From Candidatus Woesearchaeota archaeon (GTDB taxonomy: Archaea; Nanobdellota; Nanobdellia; Woesearchaeales; UBA9642), in assembly GCA_031402215.1 (NCBI GenBank), contig JANNSE010000105.1:1-22858 (forward strand): a stretch of DNA of 22,858 bases, written 5' to 3'. Made by a program: the position numbers and the translations under genes. Shown piece by piece: positions 9,661 through 17,395 of the stretch. Within the stretch, counting starts at the first letter, position 1. Each line of letters opens with the position of its first letter. The notes beneath the pieces were generated by a model. It saw only the letters and a list, made by a program, of their open reading frames with translations. It was not told the DNA's origin and did no database searches.

Positions 9661-9744
9661 TGCGGGGAGAAGGATTCGAACCCTCGAAAGCACTAAGCTA
9701 ACAGATCTTGAGTCTGTCCCATTTGGCCACTCTGGAATCCCCGC
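9661..9744 (-). tRNA. tRNA-Leu (anticodon CAA), type II with long variable arm
   Basis: The reverse complement folds by hand into a cloverleaf: acceptor GCGGGGA/TCCCCGC, anticodon stem ACAGA/TCTGT, loop CT-CAA-GA, variable arm TAGCTTAGTGCTTTC, T arm GAGGG-TTCGAAT-CCTTC, discriminator A. No CCA is encoded, and TTTTT follows directly. Confidence 0.9.
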
Positions 9745-9864
9745 GAGCCTTTTTAGAAAAAGCCTCGGGAAAAATAAATGCCGCTAAAGCGGCGTTATCT
9801 CCTGTACTTTAACTATAGAATATAGAACTGTCTAACCATTTATAAAATTATTCGAAAAAAGAAT

Positions 9865-10425
9865 TTATTGAAGTGTTTTTAGCTTCTTCTCGATGTTTGC
9901 CAAGGATTCTTCTAATCTCTCTAGTTCTGTTCTGTCAGGCCTTATTTCAGCTGGTTTTCGTAAAGCAGCAGTCTTTATATTTATAGGCTTGACTTTATCT
10001 GTACTTGGAACATTTGATAAGAAGTGCATATTATATTTAGGTAATTTCTCATTGAATTTTTTATTTAGATATAACAATTCTCTGACACAAGTCTTTAACT
10101 TGTTCATTTCCTCTAATTTTTTTTGTCTTATTAAGACCACTTTATGATGACTTCTTAGACAAAATAATATTTTCCTAGAACTTTCTAATAAATGTCTTCT
10201 ATACTCTAAAGGTTGTCTCAAATAAACAAAATAAGTCTCATGTTCTGGCGTAACTTCAGCTAATTTCTTTTTCTTAAATTGCGTTTTTATCGTCGCAGCT
10301 TTGGCCGATTGAACTACTATCTTATTCAAGTCAGATTTTGTAACTAATCTAATCTTAGCCTTAGCTACAGGCTTTGTTTTTGTACTCGACTTTACTGTCG
10401 CTTTTAAAATAGGTTTCTTACTCAT
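9865..10425 (-). CDS. Coiled-coil protein with Lys-rich basic N-terminal tail (third gene of paralog trio)
   Basis: The ORF track starts at a TTG at 10446. I prefer the ATG at 10425 (MSKKPIL...), which overlaps the upstream stop in ATGAGTAA. The central region (YFVYLRQPLEYRRHLLESSRKILF...LYLNKKFNEKL) keeps the hydrophobic register of the module seen in the two upstream genes. The C-terminal amphipathic helix is ELERLEESLANIEKKLKTLQ. Confidence 0.6.
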   Translation of the reverse strand: MSKKPILKATVKSSTKTKPVAKAKIRLVTKSDLNKIVVQSAKAATIKTQFKKKKLAEVTPEHETYFVYLRQPLEYRRHLLESSRKILFCLRSHHKVVLIRQKKLEEMNKLKTCVRELLYLNKKFNEKLPKYNMHFLSNVPSTDKVKPINIKTAALRKPAEIRPDRTELERLEESLANIEKKLKTLQ

Positions 10426-10642
10426 TTTCGAAAAATGCTGAATCAATGAATGCTAGTCTACGGGATATCTCTGTAACGTTTTTCTCCCACTCTTGCAATT
10501 CTTTGTCTTCTTCTGACTTTAAATCTTTTATTTTGTTGAGTGTTTGTGTTGTCTCTTTTAATTTCTGTTTCATAACATCAACAACGTTTAATACTTCTTT
10601 GTAATCATTAATTTTTACAAATACTGGTAAATTTTTATCCAT
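10418..10642 (-). CDS. Small coiled-coil protein, minimal copy of the shared module
   Basis: 74 aa, with AGGTGAT 4 nt upstream of the ATG (plus strand tcacc at 10647-10651). Sequence: PVFVKINDYKEVLNVVDVMKQKL...RRLAFIDSAFF. Confidence 0.6.
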   Translation of the reverse strand: MDKNLPVFVKINDYKEVLNVVDVMKQKLKETTQTLNKIKDLKSEEDKELQEWEKNVTEISRRLAFIDSAFFENE

Positions 10643-10653
10643 ATAATCACCTT

Positions 10654-11448
10654 TTATTGTGTAAATACTTTTTTATCAACTTGACTTATTCTTCTATATA
10701 AGTATTCCATTTGATCTTTAGCTTGATTTAATAACGGCTCTTCTCTTTTTAACATCTCTTCATACTTATCTAATTGTGAATCTATAGCTCCTAACGTTTT
10801 ATTCATTTGATCTAACTCAGTAAATACTCTACTATATGCTCTTCCACGTATGAATAACTCCATCGGTTTTGGAGTTGGAGAAAAAGCATCTCTAAATGGT
10901 TGTGCCGGTTCTGCGATTGGTTCTGTTGAAAGTGGTTGATTGTCATTTGCATTTTCATCAAATTCAGGTAAATCTGTTTCTCCGAAGTCTGAAGGTGTTG
11001 GTTCTTCAATTTTTTCATCAGGATAAGGATCAAAATTATTCCAATCAGGTTCTTTCCAGTCTGGATCAGTGATGAATAGTTTGTTTAAATCTTCAGGATC
11101 TACAGGTGTTGCTTCTGATGTAGGATTAGATGGAGGTGTTGGCGGAGCCAAATCATTAATTGACGCCCTAGGTCTAGCCATCTGCTCTGGTTCATCATCA
11201 GATGGAGGAAGACTAAAATCAAATGTAGGAACATTAAAAGATATAGACTTAGAATTTTCACCTTGTGACGAGTTATCAAGTGAAGGTAACTGACTAATAT
11301 TACCATAATTTTGCACATTACTACCATCAAAGTTTCCAGCAGAATTACCATCTATAGCCGGTAAGTCAGAAAAAGGTTGTTGATTGTCTGAAGAAGGGAC
11401 TGCAGATTGGTCTGATGCCTTCTTCTTCCAAAAATTAGTTAACCCCAT
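10654..11448 (-). CDS. Protein with N-terminal amphipathic helix, about 185-aa acidic/Pro/aromatic disordered region and C-terminal shared coiled-coil module
   Basis: 264 aa, with GGGGTG SD-like sequence 5 nt upstream of the ATG. The N-terminus is MGLTNFWKKK. The disordered region carries DPDWKEPDWNNFDPYPDE, DFGETDLPEFDE and FDFSLPPSDDEPE. The C-terminus ELFIRGRAYSRVFTELDQMNKTL...YRRISQVDKKVF aligns without gaps to the 74-aa protein. Confidence 0.6.
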   Translation of the reverse strand: MGLTNFWKKKASDQSAVPSSDNQQPFSDLPAIDGNSAGNFDGSNVQNYGNISQLPSLDNSSQGENSKSISFNVPTFDFSLPPSDDEPEQMARPRASINDLAPPTPPSNPTSEATPVDPEDLNKLFITDPDWKEPDWNNFDPYPDEKIEEPTPSDFGETDLPEFDENANDNQPLSTEPIAEPAQPFRDAFSPTPKPMELFIRGRAYSRVFTELDQMNKTLGAIDSQLDKYEEMLKREEPLLNQAKDQMEYLYRRISQVDKKVFTQ

Positions 11449-11600
11449 TCAACACCCCTTTATCTTATAGAAGTACTATTTCAGAACACTATTAAAAGTT
11501 TTCTTATTATTATAGAATGGTAAAAGATTTTTATCGAGAATATTTTAGTCACACAAAAAACTATAACAAAAAATTAATACTAGAAACCATTATGTAGATT

Positions 11601-12756: not shown

Positions 12757-14130
12757 ATGAAAAAACTTTGTATATTGTTTTTAATGAGTATAATAGTACT
12801 ACATCAAGCTCTTGGTTTTCAAATTACAGAAATAATGTTCAATCCTGACGGAGCAGATAGTGGGAGAGAATGGATTGAAATAGAATTAAACTCGAGCGAA
12901 GAATGTATTAACTTAACAGAATATAAATTGTTTGAAGAAGGAACAAATCACAACATATACGAATCCGCTTCAGACATATTCTGCAAATATGCGATAATAT
13001 CTTCGGATGTAAATAAATTCTTTCAAGAGTACGCGTATATTAACAACACATCAAACGTTGTCGTATACAAAAGCACGTTTAGTTTAAGCAACAGTGGAGA
13101 AAACATTGCCATAAAAAAAGGAAGCGAAATTATTGATGAAATAAATTACACATTATTAATAGAAAACATAAACATCACAGAAGGGTACAGTCTAGAATAT
13201 TATTCTAATTATTGGAGAACCTCTGAATTATTAAACGGAAATCCTGGAGAATTGATTTTTGAAGAGAATGTGTCGGGAAATAATACTGTAATTGAAAACT
13301 CTACAAATATCACGAACACTATAGACGACAACTCGACCAACAACACAATTAATACAACCAACATCACTACAGATAACTATTGTAATATCGCATTAAATAT
13401 TTTAATAAAAAACTCTTCAACAATTTATGAAAATGATGTTTCTATAAAATTTCAAAATAAATTAATGAAAGAAAACTATACAAACATCGACGAAGAATAT
13501 GTTATTGATTATTGGGTTGAAGATTTGTTTGGGAATATTATCAAAAACAAAATCTCTACGAACAATCAAGATGAAAAATCCTTCACGCCAAAGATAGAAG
13601 AGCCGGACAAAATACTTGTTATAAAAAACATGTTGAAAAACATTAGTTGTAATTTATCTAATACTTCTGATGTTAGTGGAGAAAGAATTATTTTAATTAA
13701 AAACAGTAAGTATTCCGAGACCAAGTCTAAGTCGGCAACGTGTCCTGTTTGTAGCAGCAAAGCTACATCGTGCGAACCTTGCATTTGTCTTGATCTACAA
13801 AAAAGCGCACAAAACAACAGTCAGCCATTTATAAAAATAATAAATGTCTGCAACGCTTCTAAAGAATCTAAAGAAACACAAAATAGCGTCACAGAGAATT
13901 CTTTTGAATTAGGCTCGATTCAGATACAAGATTCGCCTTCTAATAACTTGTCTAATAAAAGTCTAGCCTCAAATACAAGTAAAATGACTAGTATGGTAAT
14001 CTATGAATCTCCTAACCTAAAAAATAGACTATATGCGCTAATAGGATTAATACTTGTAGGTCTAATCTGCACAAGCATCATAGTATATAAACTCGCATCT
14101 AAAGTAGCGCGTAACCAAAAAATCGAGTAA
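12757..14130 (+). CDS. Secreted, C-terminally membrane-anchored surface glycoprotein with lamin-tail domain (LTD)
   Basis: 457 aa. Signal peptide MKKLCILFLMSIIVLHQALG. LTD signature ITEIMFNPDGADSGREWIEIELN...NLTEYKL. About 25 N-x-S/T sequons and a Cys cluster (CPVCSSKATSCEPCIC). The C-terminal TM segment LYALIGLILVGLICTSIIVY is followed by a basic tail. Confidence 0.8.
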   Translation: MKKLCILFLMSIIVLHQALGFQITEIMFNPDGADSGREWIEIELNSSEECINLTEYKLFEEGTNHNIYESASDIFCKYAIISSDVNKFFQEYAYINNTSNVVVYKSTFSLSNSGENIAIKKGSEIIDEINYTLLIENINITEGYSLEYYSNYWRTSELLNGNPGELIFEENVSGNNTVIENSTNITNTIDDNSTNNTINTTNITTDNYCNIALNILIKNSSTIYENDVSIKFQNKLMKENYTNIDEEYVIDYWVEDLFGNIIKNKISTNNQDEKSFTPKIEEPDKILVIKNMLKNISCNLSNTSDVSGERIILIKNSKYSETKSKSATCPVCSSKATSCEPCICLDLQKSAQNNSQPFIKIINVCNASKESKETQNSVTENSFELGSIQIQDSPSNNLSNKSLASNTSKMTSMVIYESPNLKNRLYALIGLILVGLICTSIIVYKLASKVARNQKIE

Positions 14131-14196: not shown

Positions 14197-14793
14197 ATGG
14201 CAGAAGAATCAAAACAATCAAAAGAAGAAAGAGATAAGAATCGTATAGTGTGTAGAGTAATATTTGAGATGGCCGGAAATCCTCAAGAGCACGTAGAAAA
14301 AACTTTTAGAGATTACATCAAAAAAATAAAGGAAGATCCTGAGTACGTTTTCACAAAAGAATATTTTTCCCCTTCTGAAGAGAACGAGGGAATATGGAGT
14401 TTATTCTACGAATCCGAAGTAATCATAGCAAACTTAGAAAAATTAAATGTATTGTGTTTTAATTTAGGCCCTGCTAGTGTAGAAATAATACATCCTGAGA
14501 ACATTACACTTTCAGATAAACAGTTGACAGATATATATACAGATTTTGCATCAAAATTACATGAAGTAGGCATTGTTATAAAAAATGCTACTAATGAAAG
14601 CGACATATTAAAAGTCAATCTTAACAGAGCTATAAGAAATTGTGTAGTATTAGCTTTGAACGAACCTAAAACAGCTAGTGAAATAGCTGAGAAAGTAGGC
14701 GTAGAAGCAGAAAACTTACAACCATTCTTAGAAGCTATGATAAGAGAAAAAAGTTTGGTGAAAGATGGTGAAAAGTATCATAAAAAAAGCTAA
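14197..14793 (+). CDS. Hypothetical protein: N-terminal beta-alpha-beta-beta-alpha-beta (ferredoxin-like pattern) domain plus C-terminal winged helix
   Basis: 198 aa. The C-terminal region NEPKTASEIAEKVGVEAENLQPFLEAMIREKSLVKDGEKY looks like a wHTH. The 3' end overlaps the scpB start by 29 nt. It is not ScpA-like, since the kleisin N-terminal motif is absent. Confidence 0.5.
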   Translation: MAEESKQSKEERDKNRIVCRVIFEMAGNPQEHVEKTFRDYIKKIKEDPEYVFTKEYFSPSEENEGIWSLFYESEVIIANLEKLNVLCFNLGPASVEIIHPENITLSDKQLTDIYTDFASKLHEVGIVIKNATNESDILKVNLNRAIRNCVVLALNEPKTASEIAEKVGVEAENLQPFLEAMIREKSLVKDGEKYHKKS

Positions 14794-16114
14794 GAAAAAT
14801 TCTAAAACAGACGTAAAAAAAGGGCATAAGATACAAGAAGTCAAGAAGAAATTTCCAAAAGCAAAAGTTTTGGAGCAAGTAAAAAAGCCCTTGCCTGTTA
14901 AAAGTCTTCCTAAAAAAATTGTCAAAGAAGATGTTAAAAAAGATAATAAACCATTAGCACAAGTTAGCGAAATAAATTCTTTCAAGGAACTTGAAACTAA
15001 AATTCTAGAAAAATTCGAAGAGAATAAACCAGAATTAAATGCTCTTTTAGATATCAAAGATGATCCTGTAGACGAAATAATAGCTAAAATGGATATTCCT
15101 AAAAAGGAAGTTGAGAAAAAACAATCGGTTAAAAAAGAGCATAAAGAACATTCTGATAAGGAAGATCAAACTAAAGAACATAAAGCGCGTGTTGAAGCAA
15201 TACTGTTCGCCGTGGGTAAATACTTGGATGAAGAGATCATATCACAATTATGTGATTTAGACAAGCGCCACGCGAAAAAAGCTTTAGAAGAGATTAAGAA
15301 AGATTACGATGAACGTGAAACGGCATTAATGATAGTACAAGAAGGTAATAGTTGGAAGATTAATGTTAGAGAAAAATATCTATCTCTGGTCAGAAAAGTC
15401 GTTGCAGATACTGAATTATCAAAATCTATAATGGAAACATTAGCAGTTATAGCATGGAAAACTCCAATATATCAAAATGAGGTCGTAAGAATACGCGGAA
15501 ATAAGTGTTATGATCACATTGCAGAGTTAGAAAATGCGGGATTCGTGACTAAAGACAAAAAAGGAAGAAGTTACGTATTAAAAACTACAGATAAATTCTA
15601 TAATTATTTTGATATAGATCAAAAACAACTTCATGGAGTAATGAGTGAGGCAAAGATGCCTGTAACACAAATGAAATTAGAAGAAGACAAGCCTGAAGAA
15701 GTAACATACAGTAGAGAAAAGTTATTACAAGCATTAGAAACTATTGAAACTAAAAGTATTGTTCAAACAGAGGAAGATAAAGTTGCACAAAAAGAGTTCT
15801 TGGAAAAAATCCATAATAAAATTGATGCTGCATCAAAGAGAACTGATGAAGTTGTAGCAGAAATTCCTAGACCGATGCACGAACAAGTTCACACAGAACC
15901 AACCATCGATCATGTTCCTCCTGAACTAGATACTGATTCGATAACGGAAAAGGGCGAAGATATTGTTATCAATACAGACGTTAACGATGCTGAGCATCAC
16001 TTTCAAAAGCCGGAAGAACAACCGCAAAAGGTTAAGCAGTTAACAAAGAAGCAATTAGAAAAGAAATTTAAAGAGGAACTGCAAAGAGTAAAAGAAAAGA
16101 GTGAAAAAAAGTAA
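14765..16114 (+). CDS. scpB: Segregation and condensation protein B (ScpB) homolog with long Lys-rich N-terminal and charged C-terminal extensions
   Basis: 449 aa, with GGTGA-N3-ATG at 14757-14767. The central core matches the ScpB family: EAILFAVGKYLDEE...LSKSIMETLAVIAWKTPIYQNEVVRIRGNKCYDHIAELENAGFV...GRSYVLKTTDKFYNYFDI. Confidence 0.8.
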   Translation: MVKSIIKKAKKNSKTDVKKGHKIQEVKKKFPKAKVLEQVKKPLPVKSLPKKIVKEDVKKDNKPLAQVSEINSFKELETKILEKFEENKPELNALLDIKDDPVDEIIAKMDIPKKEVEKKQSVKKEHKEHSDKEDQTKEHKARVEAILFAVGKYLDEEIISQLCDLDKRHAKKALEEIKKDYDERETALMIVQEGNSWKINVREKYLSLVRKVVADTELSKSIMETLAVIAWKTPIYQNEVVRIRGNKCYDHIAELENAGFVTKDKKGRSYVLKTTDKFYNYFDIDQKQLHGVMSEAKMPVTQMKLEEDKPEEVTYSREKLLQALETIETKSIVQTEEDKVAQKEFLEKIHNKIDAASKRTDEVVAEIPRPMHEQVHTEPTIDHVPPELDTDSITEKGEDIVINTDVNDAEHHFQKPEEQPQKVKQLTKKQLEKKFKEELQRVKEKSEKK

Positions 16115-16296: not shown

Positions 16297-17256
16297 CTAA
16301 TCAGGTATCATAGATAACTTAGGGAATCCGGTATAACCCATATATTCATAACTCTTTATTGTTCCTTTGAATTTTTGCATTATCTCCTCTAGAATTTCTA
16401 ATAGATGAGCTAAATCTTTTACAACTACTTCACATTCAAAGTCCGCACCACCTATTGACTTATTTATTTGATAAAAATATTTATGATATTTTATGTATTC
16501 AAATAATTCTTTTGTTTTTTCCATTGAATTTAACGCAAAATCGACACGATAACCCTGAAACCCTAACTTAGGGAGATTTAAATCAATCTTATATCCTACA
16601 ATAACTTTCTTCTGTTCTAATGTTTTTATTCTTCTACGTACAGTCTCAATGCTTGTTTTCGCTTCTTTAGCAATAACTGCAAGACTTTGCCTAACATCTG
16701 AAGAATAGATAGAAAGTATTTTCTCATCTAATTCATCGTGCTCTACAAATCCTTTCTCACCATAAACTCTAGAAATTAATTCTTTACTTTCGTAGAAAAA
16801 TCGTTTGTTAAAATTATAAATAGGAGCGTAGATTGCAATCTTATACTCAGCAACAAAAGGCTTATATTTTAATAAAATAGCATTCCAAATACTTTGAAAT
16901 TTTTCAATATACTCGTCTCGCTTTATTCCGAGAAAAAATGCAAAATCCCATTTACCATGAAGTTCTGTTGTCGTCCATATATTCTCATAGAGACCTATAT
17001 CTTTGTAAAATTCTTGTTTCAAGTGTAGAGTCATATTCTGCCATCGAAAATAAATTCTAAAGGTTAAATAACCTAACTTCGACATGTCAACAATCGCTGT
17101 ACAATTCCTCAATATATTTTGTTCTTTAAGACGATTTATACGATAAGTCACAGATTCTTTAGAGCGCTTAATCTTCTTAGCTAAAATACTTACAGGAATG
17201 GAAGAATCTTTTTCTAACTCGAATAATATCTTCTTATCAAGCAAATCTAACATCAT
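16297..17256 (-). CDS. Tandem (duplicated) Lrp/AsnC-family transcriptional regulator
   Basis: Two HTH_AsnC-type modules (LDKKILFELEKDSSIPVSILAKKIKRSKESVTYRINRLKEQNIL and LDEKILSIYSSDVRQSLAVIAKEAKTSIETVRRRIKTLEQKKVI), each followed by a RAM-like domain. The ORF track starts at a GTG at 17322. I prefer the ATG at 17256, which has an AT-rich TATA-like sequence upstream. Confidence 0.8.
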   Translation of the reverse strand: MMLDLLDKKILFELEKDSSIPVSILAKKIKRSKESVTYRINRLKEQNILRNCTAIVDMSKLGYLTFRIYFRWQNMTLHLKQEFYKDIGLYENIWTTTELHGKWDFAFFLGIKRDEYIEKFQSIWNAILLKYKPFVAEYKIAIYAPIYNFNKRFFYESKELISRVYGEKGFVEHDELDEKILSIYSSDVRQSLAVIAKEAKTSIETVRRRIKTLEQKKVIVGYKIDLNLPKLGFQGYRVDFALNSMEKTKELFEYIKYHKYFYQINKSIGGADFECEVVVKDLAHLLEILEEIMQKFKGTIKSYEYMGYTGFPKLSMIPD

Positions 17257-17395
17257 TGTGTAAATAACAAGCTTAAATTTAAATATTTTCCCATAATCTG
17301 AGCATTTGTAGGAAATAATCACAGATAGTTCTAGAAATTCTTATATATTACAATCACTTTACAGTAGTATAAATAATATAAAGAGGTAAATAAAA

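Follow-up and report, generated by a model that had tools for sequence, protein, structure and literature searches.

A conserved three-gene operon in Woesearchaeota-type DPANN archaea encodes paralogous coiled-coil proteins and a candidate membrane-tethered scaffold

We analyzed a stretch of 22,858 nucleotides from a Candidatus Woesearchaeota archaeon (GenBank assembly GCA_031402215.1, contig JANNSE010000105.1), hereafter termed the window, in which three genes of uncharacterized proteins, here named A, B and C, follow each other on the minus strand (Table 1). An initial annotation made from the sequence alone had described them as co-directional and tightly packed, with an 11-nt gap containing AGGTGAT and a start/stop overlap. 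Reading of the sequence agreed with all of this. The ATG of C overlaps the stop codon of B, reading ATGAGTAA. In the list of open reading frames (ORFs), C starts at a TTG at position 10446. Homologues begin with MSKK, MNKK or MTK, and therefore the ATG was taken as the start. The T6 run behind C is probably an archaeal oligo-T terminator that closes the operon. Ahead of A, the boxes TCTATAATAATAA and TTCTATAAGATA, together with a ribosome-binding-like GGGGTG 5 nt before the ATG, may serve as promoter and ribosome-binding site. A, B and C form one operon. The DNA of the window is archaeal, with a G+C content of ~31–35% and genes for CDP-archaeol synthase, PCNA, an archaeal-type RNase J, ScpB and GyrA.

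The C-terminal part of A and almost all of B had been proposed to share one module. The ungapped alignment of A residues 197–262 with B residues 6–71 contains 14 identities and reaches a BLOSUM62 score of 61. As a control, shuffled sequences were compared. In Smith-Waterman alignment the A–B pair scored 66, versus 27.7 ± 5.5 in 1000 shuffles (z = 7), and none of the 1000 reached 66. With profiles built from close homologues only, the match was modest (E = 0.003 over 70 columns). Broad profiles were built from 140 diverse B-like proteins and from 71 A-like C-termini taken from syntenic loci. Using these, hhalign returned a probability of 99.3% and E = 1.9e-20 over 74 columns. For the proteins of the window, a hidden Markov model of the A terminus found B at E = 1.7e-19, and the B model found A residues 195–263 at E = 7.6e-6. 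The proposed alignment is therefore real and, judged from these comparisons, A and B are true paralogues. In their shared module, a short hydrophobic segment leads into a helix of ~60 residues whose heptads run without a break; 88% (A) and 82% (B) of the a and d positions are hydrophobic.

B was modeled by AlphaFold2 with family alignments. The model shows an extended PVFVKI N-terminus and a single helix of 62 residues (11–72), with a mean predicted local distance difference test score (pLDDT) of 89.7. This fits the earlier description of B as the bare module. A strand had also been ascribed to the module; in the monomer models of B and C the hydrophobic segment is extended and no strand is formed. 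The 95 close homologues of B have a mean column identity of 76%. Among the 140 diverse B-like proteins E45 and W52 are invariant, and the conserved polar pair K42/E45 sits at core positions of the helix. In the N-terminal third, the e and g positions are hydrophobic as well. Such a residue pattern would fit a multi-helix, register-specific bundle. A lone amphipathic helix of ~60 residues is unlikely to be stable by itself.

The AlphaFold2 model of C comprises a disordered Lys-rich tail (residues 1–63), the segment YFVYL, a helix of 56 residues (72–127, pLDDT >90), a disordered basic linker and a second helix (167–185). The N-terminal tail contains 27% lysine and has a charge of +15, followed by +9 in the core and +4 in the linker. 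Both the basic tail and the C-terminal amphipathic helix named in the initial annotation were thus recovered, the former in the composition and the latter in the model. Homologues of C numbered 57. The family shows no variation at L171, E172, S174, L175, I178, E179, K181 and L182 of the terminal helix, where every a and d position is hydrophobic. All C-like proteins end with a basic linker and the sequence TELEKLE(S/E)(S/E)LxxIExKLKxL, an idealized three-heptad helix, for which designed coiled-coil peptides were the sole likeness in the databases.

C had been suggested to carry the same module in a weaker register. Pairwise comparison of C with A and B gave z values of −0.2 to 1.8 and hence no support for homology. 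In hhalign alignment to the module, narrow profiles reached E = 0.15 and 0.073, and broad ones E = 0.027 at a probability of 1.8%. The broad alignment of B with the C core was in register from the hydrophobic segment onward. A weak match of the terminal C helix to B residues 42–68 (E = 6.7e-4, probability 27%) was not relied on. By its sequence C has the same layout as the module, a short hydrophobic segment and then one long helix, without detectable homology, and its heptads are less regular (56% of a and d positions hydrophobic). A very remote homology to the A/B module may still underlie this layout. Of the proposal of one module in three variants, the paralogy of A and B therefore stands, and the inclusion of C has been given up.

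The distribution of the trio was addressed by searching the B profile against 1.84 billion cluster representatives. At E <= 1e-10, 258 clusters (50% identity) were matched. Nearly all were of 71–84 amino acids and matched end to end, and the few longer ones had the architecture of A, that is a peptide, a Pro-rich linker and a C-terminal module. Where names were given, these were Woesearchaeota, Nanoarchaeota, Nanobdellota or simply 'archaeon'. Those close relatives of A, B and C that have a name are mostly labeled Candidatus Woesearchaeota, and one is labeled Alphaproteobacteria, apparently a mislabeled metagenome-assembled genome. Several trio-bearing records (loci L009–L013) are labeled 'Methanosarcinales archaeon' or 'Alphaproteobacteria bacterium'. 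These labels look wrong, since the gene content matches Woesearchaeota-type loci. Scanning a genome collection with patterns of the window's clade returned nine species, a count that understates the distribution because the patterns are specific to this clade.

For the genomic context 95 loci were fetched; the metagenome scan used an 18-sequence subset of the B-like alignment. Counting, after dereplication, only loci in which the contig extends far enough, B is preceded by an A-like gene in 67/70 and followed by a C-like gene in 75/75. The median gaps are 5 nt between A and B and 1 nt between B and C, and B and C overlap at 27 of 76 junctions. Co-occurrence in related genomes, which the initial annotation had proposed to look for, is thus found. 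The trio is conserved across Woesearchaeota/Nanobdellota-type DPANN, almost always adjacent and often translationally coupled. Mean pairwise identity was 0.51–0.55 for B, versus 0.43 for ScpB, 0.59 for RNase J and 0.73 for PCNA in the same loci. By this sequence measure, B evolves as slowly as housekeeping genes. The corresponding values were 0.41 for the C core and 0.36 for the A module. We rejected a viral or mobile origin, as no relatives were found in viral contigs (IMG/VR) and the gene context is housekeeping.

Association of the helices was evaluated by scoring g-to-e' charge pairs in 74 distinct loci, assuming parallel, in-register helices from the homologous alignment of A and B. Normalized to 16 contacts, the charge complementarity was 3.42 for A:B, 1.78 for A:A and −0.24 for B:B. 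All shifted A:B registers scored lower (−1.4 to 2.0). Shuffling the e and g residues of A resulted in −0.04 ± 0.23, and 0 of 500 shuffles reached the observed A:B score. In 69 of the 74 loci A:B lay above the mean of the homo-pairs. These values are supportive of a parallel, in-register A:B pairing, which charge complementarity would favor. The same register scan of C against A or B revealed no peak. The earlier idea of a hetero-oligomer hence gains indirect support for A and B from the e/g charges, and none for C, which shows no register.

These data also bear on the possibility that there is no joint complex, and that the trio represents three independent small coiled-coil proteins, chaperone-like or adaptors, linked by synteny alone, with the A peptide serving a non-membrane purpose. 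We regard this as improbable. C without detectable homology to A and B, and without a register preference, would be expected under it, and every functional inference made here is indirect. It fits poorly with the near-perfect adjacency, the gaps of 1–5 nt and the frequent overlaps, which persist though the A module is only 36% identical. The charge complementarity specific to the in-register hetero pair argues against it as well, as does the need of single long amphipathic helices for partners.

We then turn to the remaining parts of A, for which 36 homologues were found and 35 aligned. The close family has the N-terminal consensus MGLLNFWKKK. The broader A-like consensus, MGFLKFLKREKK (M-G-F-L-K-F-L-K-R-E-K-K), directly adjoins the start codon in 63 of 73 distinct genes. 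Six of the other ten are cut by contig ends, and four are complete, three of these with variants. The peptide is the most constant part of A-like proteins outside the module. Independent, longer module proteins carry MGLFSSKKK, MGLFTKKR or MALFDFGKKKKK at the N-terminus. The hydrophobic moment of the peptide is 0.36–0.61. Taken together, the peptide may well bind the membrane, and the initial suggestion of a membrane-targeting N-terminus is strengthened by the strict motif in these 63 genes. GTG or TTG starts are used in 38 of the 63 (loci L016–L095). As a side observation, gene callers frequently shorten A-like genes to an internal ATG, so that the predicted membrane-targeting peptide is lost. 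Neither a signal peptide nor a transmembrane segment could be read from the sequences of A, B or C; the three proteins are therefore taken to be cytoplasmic, and a role in host contact, also considered at first, was dropped.

The acidic linker of A contains a series of short motifs conserved in the A family, namely DLPxIDG, KSISFNVPTLDFSLPxSDD, EDLNKLFIxDxxWKEPDWxNFxPY, EEPxPxDF and DLPxF. In wider relatives Pro makes up 18% and Glu 16% of the linker, the median length being 134 amino acids and the median charge −15. There, [DE]LP occurs in 62 of 64 linkers with ~3 copies each, and PEFP, PELP and LDLPPAPPP also recur. The motifs KSISFNVPTLDFSLP and WKEPDW..F.PY are added in the window's clade. 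All motifs quoted in the initial annotation (MGLTNFWKKK, DPDWKEPDW, DLPEFDE, FDFSLPPSDDE and ELERLEESLANIEKKLKTLQ) are present in the window's proteins. We considered whether DLPxF and IDG in the linker resemble FtsZ tails and dropped this idea, as archaeal FtsZ tails center on GID and no connection was seen.

Database searches were carried out with A, B and C and with 140 B-like and 45 C-like relatives. Scans of Pfam, NCBIfam, PHROGs and PADLOC assigned none of these to a family. Below the thresholds only coiled-coil noise was observed (Nuf2, Med9, NPV_P10, Laminin_II, IFT20, DUF1940). DUF1940 (PF09155) was rejected: its best score was 23.5 bits versus a cut-off of 25 bits, over a single-helix stretch, and 7/140 members were touched (best E = 7e-4). 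V-SNARE_C was touched by 2/140 members at E = 0.0018, below its cut-off, and a SNARE was rejected, there being no transmembrane segment; the conserved polar K42/E45 layer is not SNARE-specific. Prefoldin was likewise discarded, as no profile matched and each protein shows a single helix behind a short extended stretch, not two long helices that flank a beta hairpin. Sequence profile searches of the PDB with five alignments revealed nothing below E = 0.02, the matches being designed, troponin and homing-endonuclease helices. Foldseek searches of the B and C models against the PDB gave zero matches, which is uninformative because the models are single helices. The module thus matches none of the known families searched, in line with the initial annotation. 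The A, B and C families are new: no curated family, solved structure or located paper describes them. A survey of 2019 lists a DPANN-only alpha-helical protein with house-keeping context, cls.004340 (NEQ484) (PMC6393860). It may be the B or C family, the likeness being by description only.

The profile searches and models also speak to a membrane-remodeling polymer of the ESCRT-III or PspA type, built from separate helices, with the MGLF-type N-terminus of A as alpha-0 and the terminal helix of C as a MIM-like peptide. The N-termini of Vipp1, PspA and CHMP are MG-hydrophobic-basic peptides. The A N-terminus resembles them, and in the AlphaFold2 model of C a flexible linker connects a basic helix to an amphipathic one at the end. 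The profiles argue otherwise, since no Snf7 or PspA (PspA_IM30) match occurred among ~190 members scanned in Pfam and NCBIfam. AlphaFold2 predicts single helices (B 11–72, C 72–127) instead of the defining hairpin, and ~185 disordered residues lie between the A peptide and its helix. The hydrophobic spacing of the terminal C helix (0, 3, 7, 10) is unlike MIM1, and no Vps4, AAA or MIT gene lies within ±8 kb of the 95 loci. We consider this type of polymer highly improbable.

A closer architectural parallel is offered by the archaeal FtsZ anchors. SepF has a helix at residues 1–12, a linker and then its core (PMC8178401). A shares with it an MG... N-terminal amphipathic helix, for which membrane binding is predicted in A, a flexible linker and a C-terminal oligomerizing or binding domain. 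In contrast to SepF, A has no alpha/beta core. No match to PF04472 was obtained for A, B or C even at E <= 10, and the SepF core was not among the top families of the 140 B-like and 45 C-like members and had no PDB sequence match. Its C-terminus is a single heptad helix, the linker is 3–4 times longer, acidic and motif-bearing, and there are two obligate operon partners. In CdpC (HVO_0399), the haloarchaeal FtsZ1 anchor, a disordered linker connects an amphipathic helix to a C-terminal domain that binds FtsZ1, and the protein requires zinc fingers in both terminal domains (10.64898/2026.07.16.738847). Like A, it evolves fast in sequence with a conserved architecture (10.64898/2026.07.16.738847). 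A, however, has zero cysteines and hence no zinc fingers, and CdpC has neither a coiled-coil module nor B and C partners and belongs to another lineage. Within the searches made here, homology to SepF or CdpC is therefore ruled out, A having no SepF core, zinc finger or cysteine. The operon of Dip/Arco, a recently described oscillator for divisome positioning, encodes a Ras-like GTPase, a DUF2073 SepF-like protein and a Zn-ribbon/disordered protein (PMC13228585; 10.64898/2026.07.23.738820). As none of GTPase, DUF2073 or Zn-ribbon is found in A, B or C, homology to Dip/Arco was rejected too.

From these parallels, the trio could be a dedicated membrane anchor or regulator of FtsZ or another cytoskeletal filament, a DPANN counterpart of SepF and CdpC in which the linker motifs or the coiled coil bind the filament. 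The layout of A does match these two proven archaeal FtsZ anchors, and most DPANN reportedly lack Dip/Arco (PMC13228585), so that division factors particular to a lineage could have a place there. We nevertheless judge such an anchor improbable, given that homology to the SepF core, the CdpC zinc fingers or DUF2073 is lacking and that the flanks of all 95 loci, out to ±8 kb, contain neither ftsZ nor sepF. Archaeal FtsZ tails, moreover, center on GID, with no known recognizer of it in the trio.

Bacterial systems provide two further comparisons. The N-terminus of E. coli MinE, MALLDFFLSRKK, resembles MGLLNFWKKK and MGFLKFLKREKK in its short hydrophobic stretch and basic cluster. This likeness was seen by eye and is confined to a peptide of 10–12 residues; A lacks the MinE fold and has no MinD in its neighborhood. 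Small division-associated proteins of the ZapB and DivIVA/GpsB type, of 70–100 residues, consist essentially of one long coiled-coil helix and serve to scaffold or crosslink structures at the membrane or the Z ring. They show no profile similarity to the trio and are homo-oligomers, in contrast to the two paralogues and third partner found here, which also have the polar K42/E45 core layer and the invariant Trp52.

The conserved neighborhood was inspected in the same loci. On the divergent flank of the trio a membrane-anchored secreted glycoprotein is encoded in 44 loci, a radical-SAM enzyme in 17, an MJ0538-like protein in 36 and ScpB in 29. The other flank carries RNase J in 38 loci and PCNA in 21. 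ScpB and its constant MJ0538-like partner lie 1–7 kb upstream in 29–36 loci, the window included. This could indicate a tether of the chromosome to the membrane or an SMC-ScpB accessory, with A on the membrane, the Lys-rich tail and linker of C on DNA and the coiled coil linking both, as an aid to segregation in tiny cells. The strong basicity of C, and the basic linker present in all C-like proteins, would suit such a role. The long Lys tail, however, is restricted to the window's clade, most C-like proteins beginning at the FFV segment, and no DNA-binding fold was detected. ScpB lies on the opposite strand, with the surface protein or radical-SAM gene in between, and RNase J and PCNA are equally linked. 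A DNA tether of this kind is in our estimate quite unlikely.

The linkage to RNase J was considered in the same way. Membrane tethering is also known from RNase E and RNase Y, which have disordered motif-bearing or coiled-coil regions. The trio might by analogy be a degradosome-like, membrane-anchored scaffold that recruits RNA-processing enzymes. RNase J follows on the same strand in 38 loci (median 1.6 kb, with a tRNA gene between), and several conserved short motifs in the A linker are typical of scaffold microdomains. Still, a terminator-like T-run, the tRNA gene and another ORF separate RNase J from the trio, the linkage is no stronger than that of PCNA or ScpB, and no RNA-binding domain was found, so that a degradosome appears very remote.

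Weighing these readings, we favor, tentatively and at slightly less than an even chance, the view that A, B and C build a heteromeric coiled-coil scaffold in the cytoplasm, tethered to the membrane and confined to Woesearchaeota/Nanobdellota-type DPANN. In such a scaffold, the A peptide (MGFLKFLKR or MGLLNFWKKK) would lie on the inner membrane face, similar to the SepF and CdpC helices and the MinE sequence. The A module would pair with B, parallel and in register, and the N-terminal hydrophobic segments would fix this register. C would enter the bundle by means of the long basic helix, and the three-heptad zipper at its end, on a tether that is flexible and rich in Lys, could crosslink complexes or dock back onto the bundle. 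The linker of ~130–180 residues would act as a spacer from the membrane, and its short motifs might recruit clients. As to the process served, our leading guess is a part in division or in segregating chromosomes at the membrane, based on the ScpB/PCNA/RNase J neighborhood, the slow evolution of B and the analogy to archaeal FtsZ anchors.

Several points weigh against such a scaffold. The A peptide is only 8–10 residues long, and in the window its hydrophobic moment is only moderate (0.36). The genes next to the trio include none for division, the cytoskeleton or ESCRT, and the neighborhood may be conserved as frozen synteny and not for a common function. The charge measure is heuristic, and its significance is overstated because the sequences are phylogenetically related. 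The place of C in the complex is a guess, since no preferred register was found. A more far-reaching version of the scaffold, which we consider unlikely, would make the trio a so far unrecognized cytoskeletal or organizing machine specific to the Nanobdellota lineage, a membrane-anchored heteromeric coiled-coil lattice that positions or drives division or chromosome partitioning in ultra-small cells, with the motifs of the acidic, Pro-rich linker ([DE]LP, PEFP, WKEPDW) as a new archaeal docking class. Such a lattice would have an evolutionary origin separate from SepF, CdpC, Min, Dip/Arco and ESCRT.

Table 1. Features of the operon and of other parts of the window (positions in the 22,858-nt stretch)
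Feature	Position	Strand	Description
Gene A (264 aa)	10654-11448	minus	ORF and translation; amphipathic-basic peptide, acidic linker, C-terminal coiled-coil module
A codons 1-10, MGLTNFWKKK	11419-11448	minus	predicted membrane-targeting amphipathic helix
A residues 11-193, acidic linker	10870-11418	minus	net charge -29, 15.8% Pro
A residues 194-264, coiled-coil module paralogous to B	10657-10869	minus	hydrophobic ELFIRG, then heptad helix
Gene B (74 aa)	10418-10642	minus	bare module; most conserved of A, B and C
Gene C (186 aa from ATG)	9865-10425	minus	Lys-rich tail, YFVYL and helix, basic linker, terminal helix
C residues 166-186, TELERLEESLANIEKKLKTLQ	9868-9930	minus	three-heptad amphipathic helix on flexible basic tether, pLDDT ~91
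Region upstream of A	11449-11530	minus	A/T-rich TATA-like boxes TCTATAATAATAA, TTCTATAAGATA; read directly
A-B gap, 11 nt, AAGGTGATTAT on coding strand	10643-10653	minus	Shine-Dalgarno-like AGGTGAT for B; read directly
T6 run	9855-9860	minus	5 nt past C stop; read directly
Hairpin GCCGC-TTTA-GCGGC and T-run	9771-9793		between C and tRNA gene
tRNA-Leu(CAA)	9661-9744	minus	same strand, just downstream of C
ORF, 196 aa	8925-9515	minus	no Pfam/NCBIfam match
ORF, 210 aa	2439-3071	minus	no Pfam/NCBIfam match
Lipid genes	608-2332	minus	two tandem CDP-alcohol phosphatidyltransferase genes and CDP-archaeol synthase (CarS)
457-aa protein	12757-14130	plus	signal peptide, many N-x-S/T sequons, C-terminal transmembrane helix
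198-aa ORF and ScpB	14197-16114	plus	ORF overlaps ScpB start by 29 nt
341-aa protein	16297-17322	minus	AsnC-type helix-turn-helix twice in tandem
ORF, 123 aa	17396-17767	plus	no Pfam/NCBIfam match

Some features outside the operon deserve mention (Table 1). A search of Rfam revealed the tRNA and no other RNA match. Relatives such as L015 show a tRNA-like position after the trio too. At the position of the 196-aa ORF, between the trio and RNase J, loci L001 and L003–L006 have similar-sized ORFs without a family match, as judged by size and position only. The 457-aa protein is the window's member of the glycoprotein family found beside the trio in 44 related loci; it matched no Pfam family and may be functionally linked to the trio. 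Relatives of the 198-aa ORF carry PF27325 'MJ0538'. The ScpB of the window has 449 amino acids, including an N-terminal extension of 140 residues, and the MJ0538-like protein might be an unrecognized ScpB partner. The 341-aa protein is an unusual duplicated regulator. The lipid genes belong to membrane-lipid head-group biosynthesis; genomes of this type are commonly described as being without lipid synthesis.

DPANN make up a large share of archaeal diversity, and the membrane organization, division and DNA segregation of their tiny cells are barely understood. The trio is a conserved and experimentally tractable candidate in this respect, with the slow-evolving B of 74 residues, its peptide-bearing paralogue A and the basic, zipper-ended C. 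By analogy we rate it as what would be a new, non-homologous system of the amphipathic-helix-tethered scaffold type, and the family itself as new. Should the proteins turn out to be just generic coiled-coil adaptors, the families would still be defined, and their synteny could serve to mark Woesearchaeota-type genomes. If the membrane-tethered scaffold is true, three new protein families, unnamed in current databases, would be defined, and the trio would represent a third non-homologous solution to the design of amphipathic helix, linker and binder, beside SepF and CdpC.

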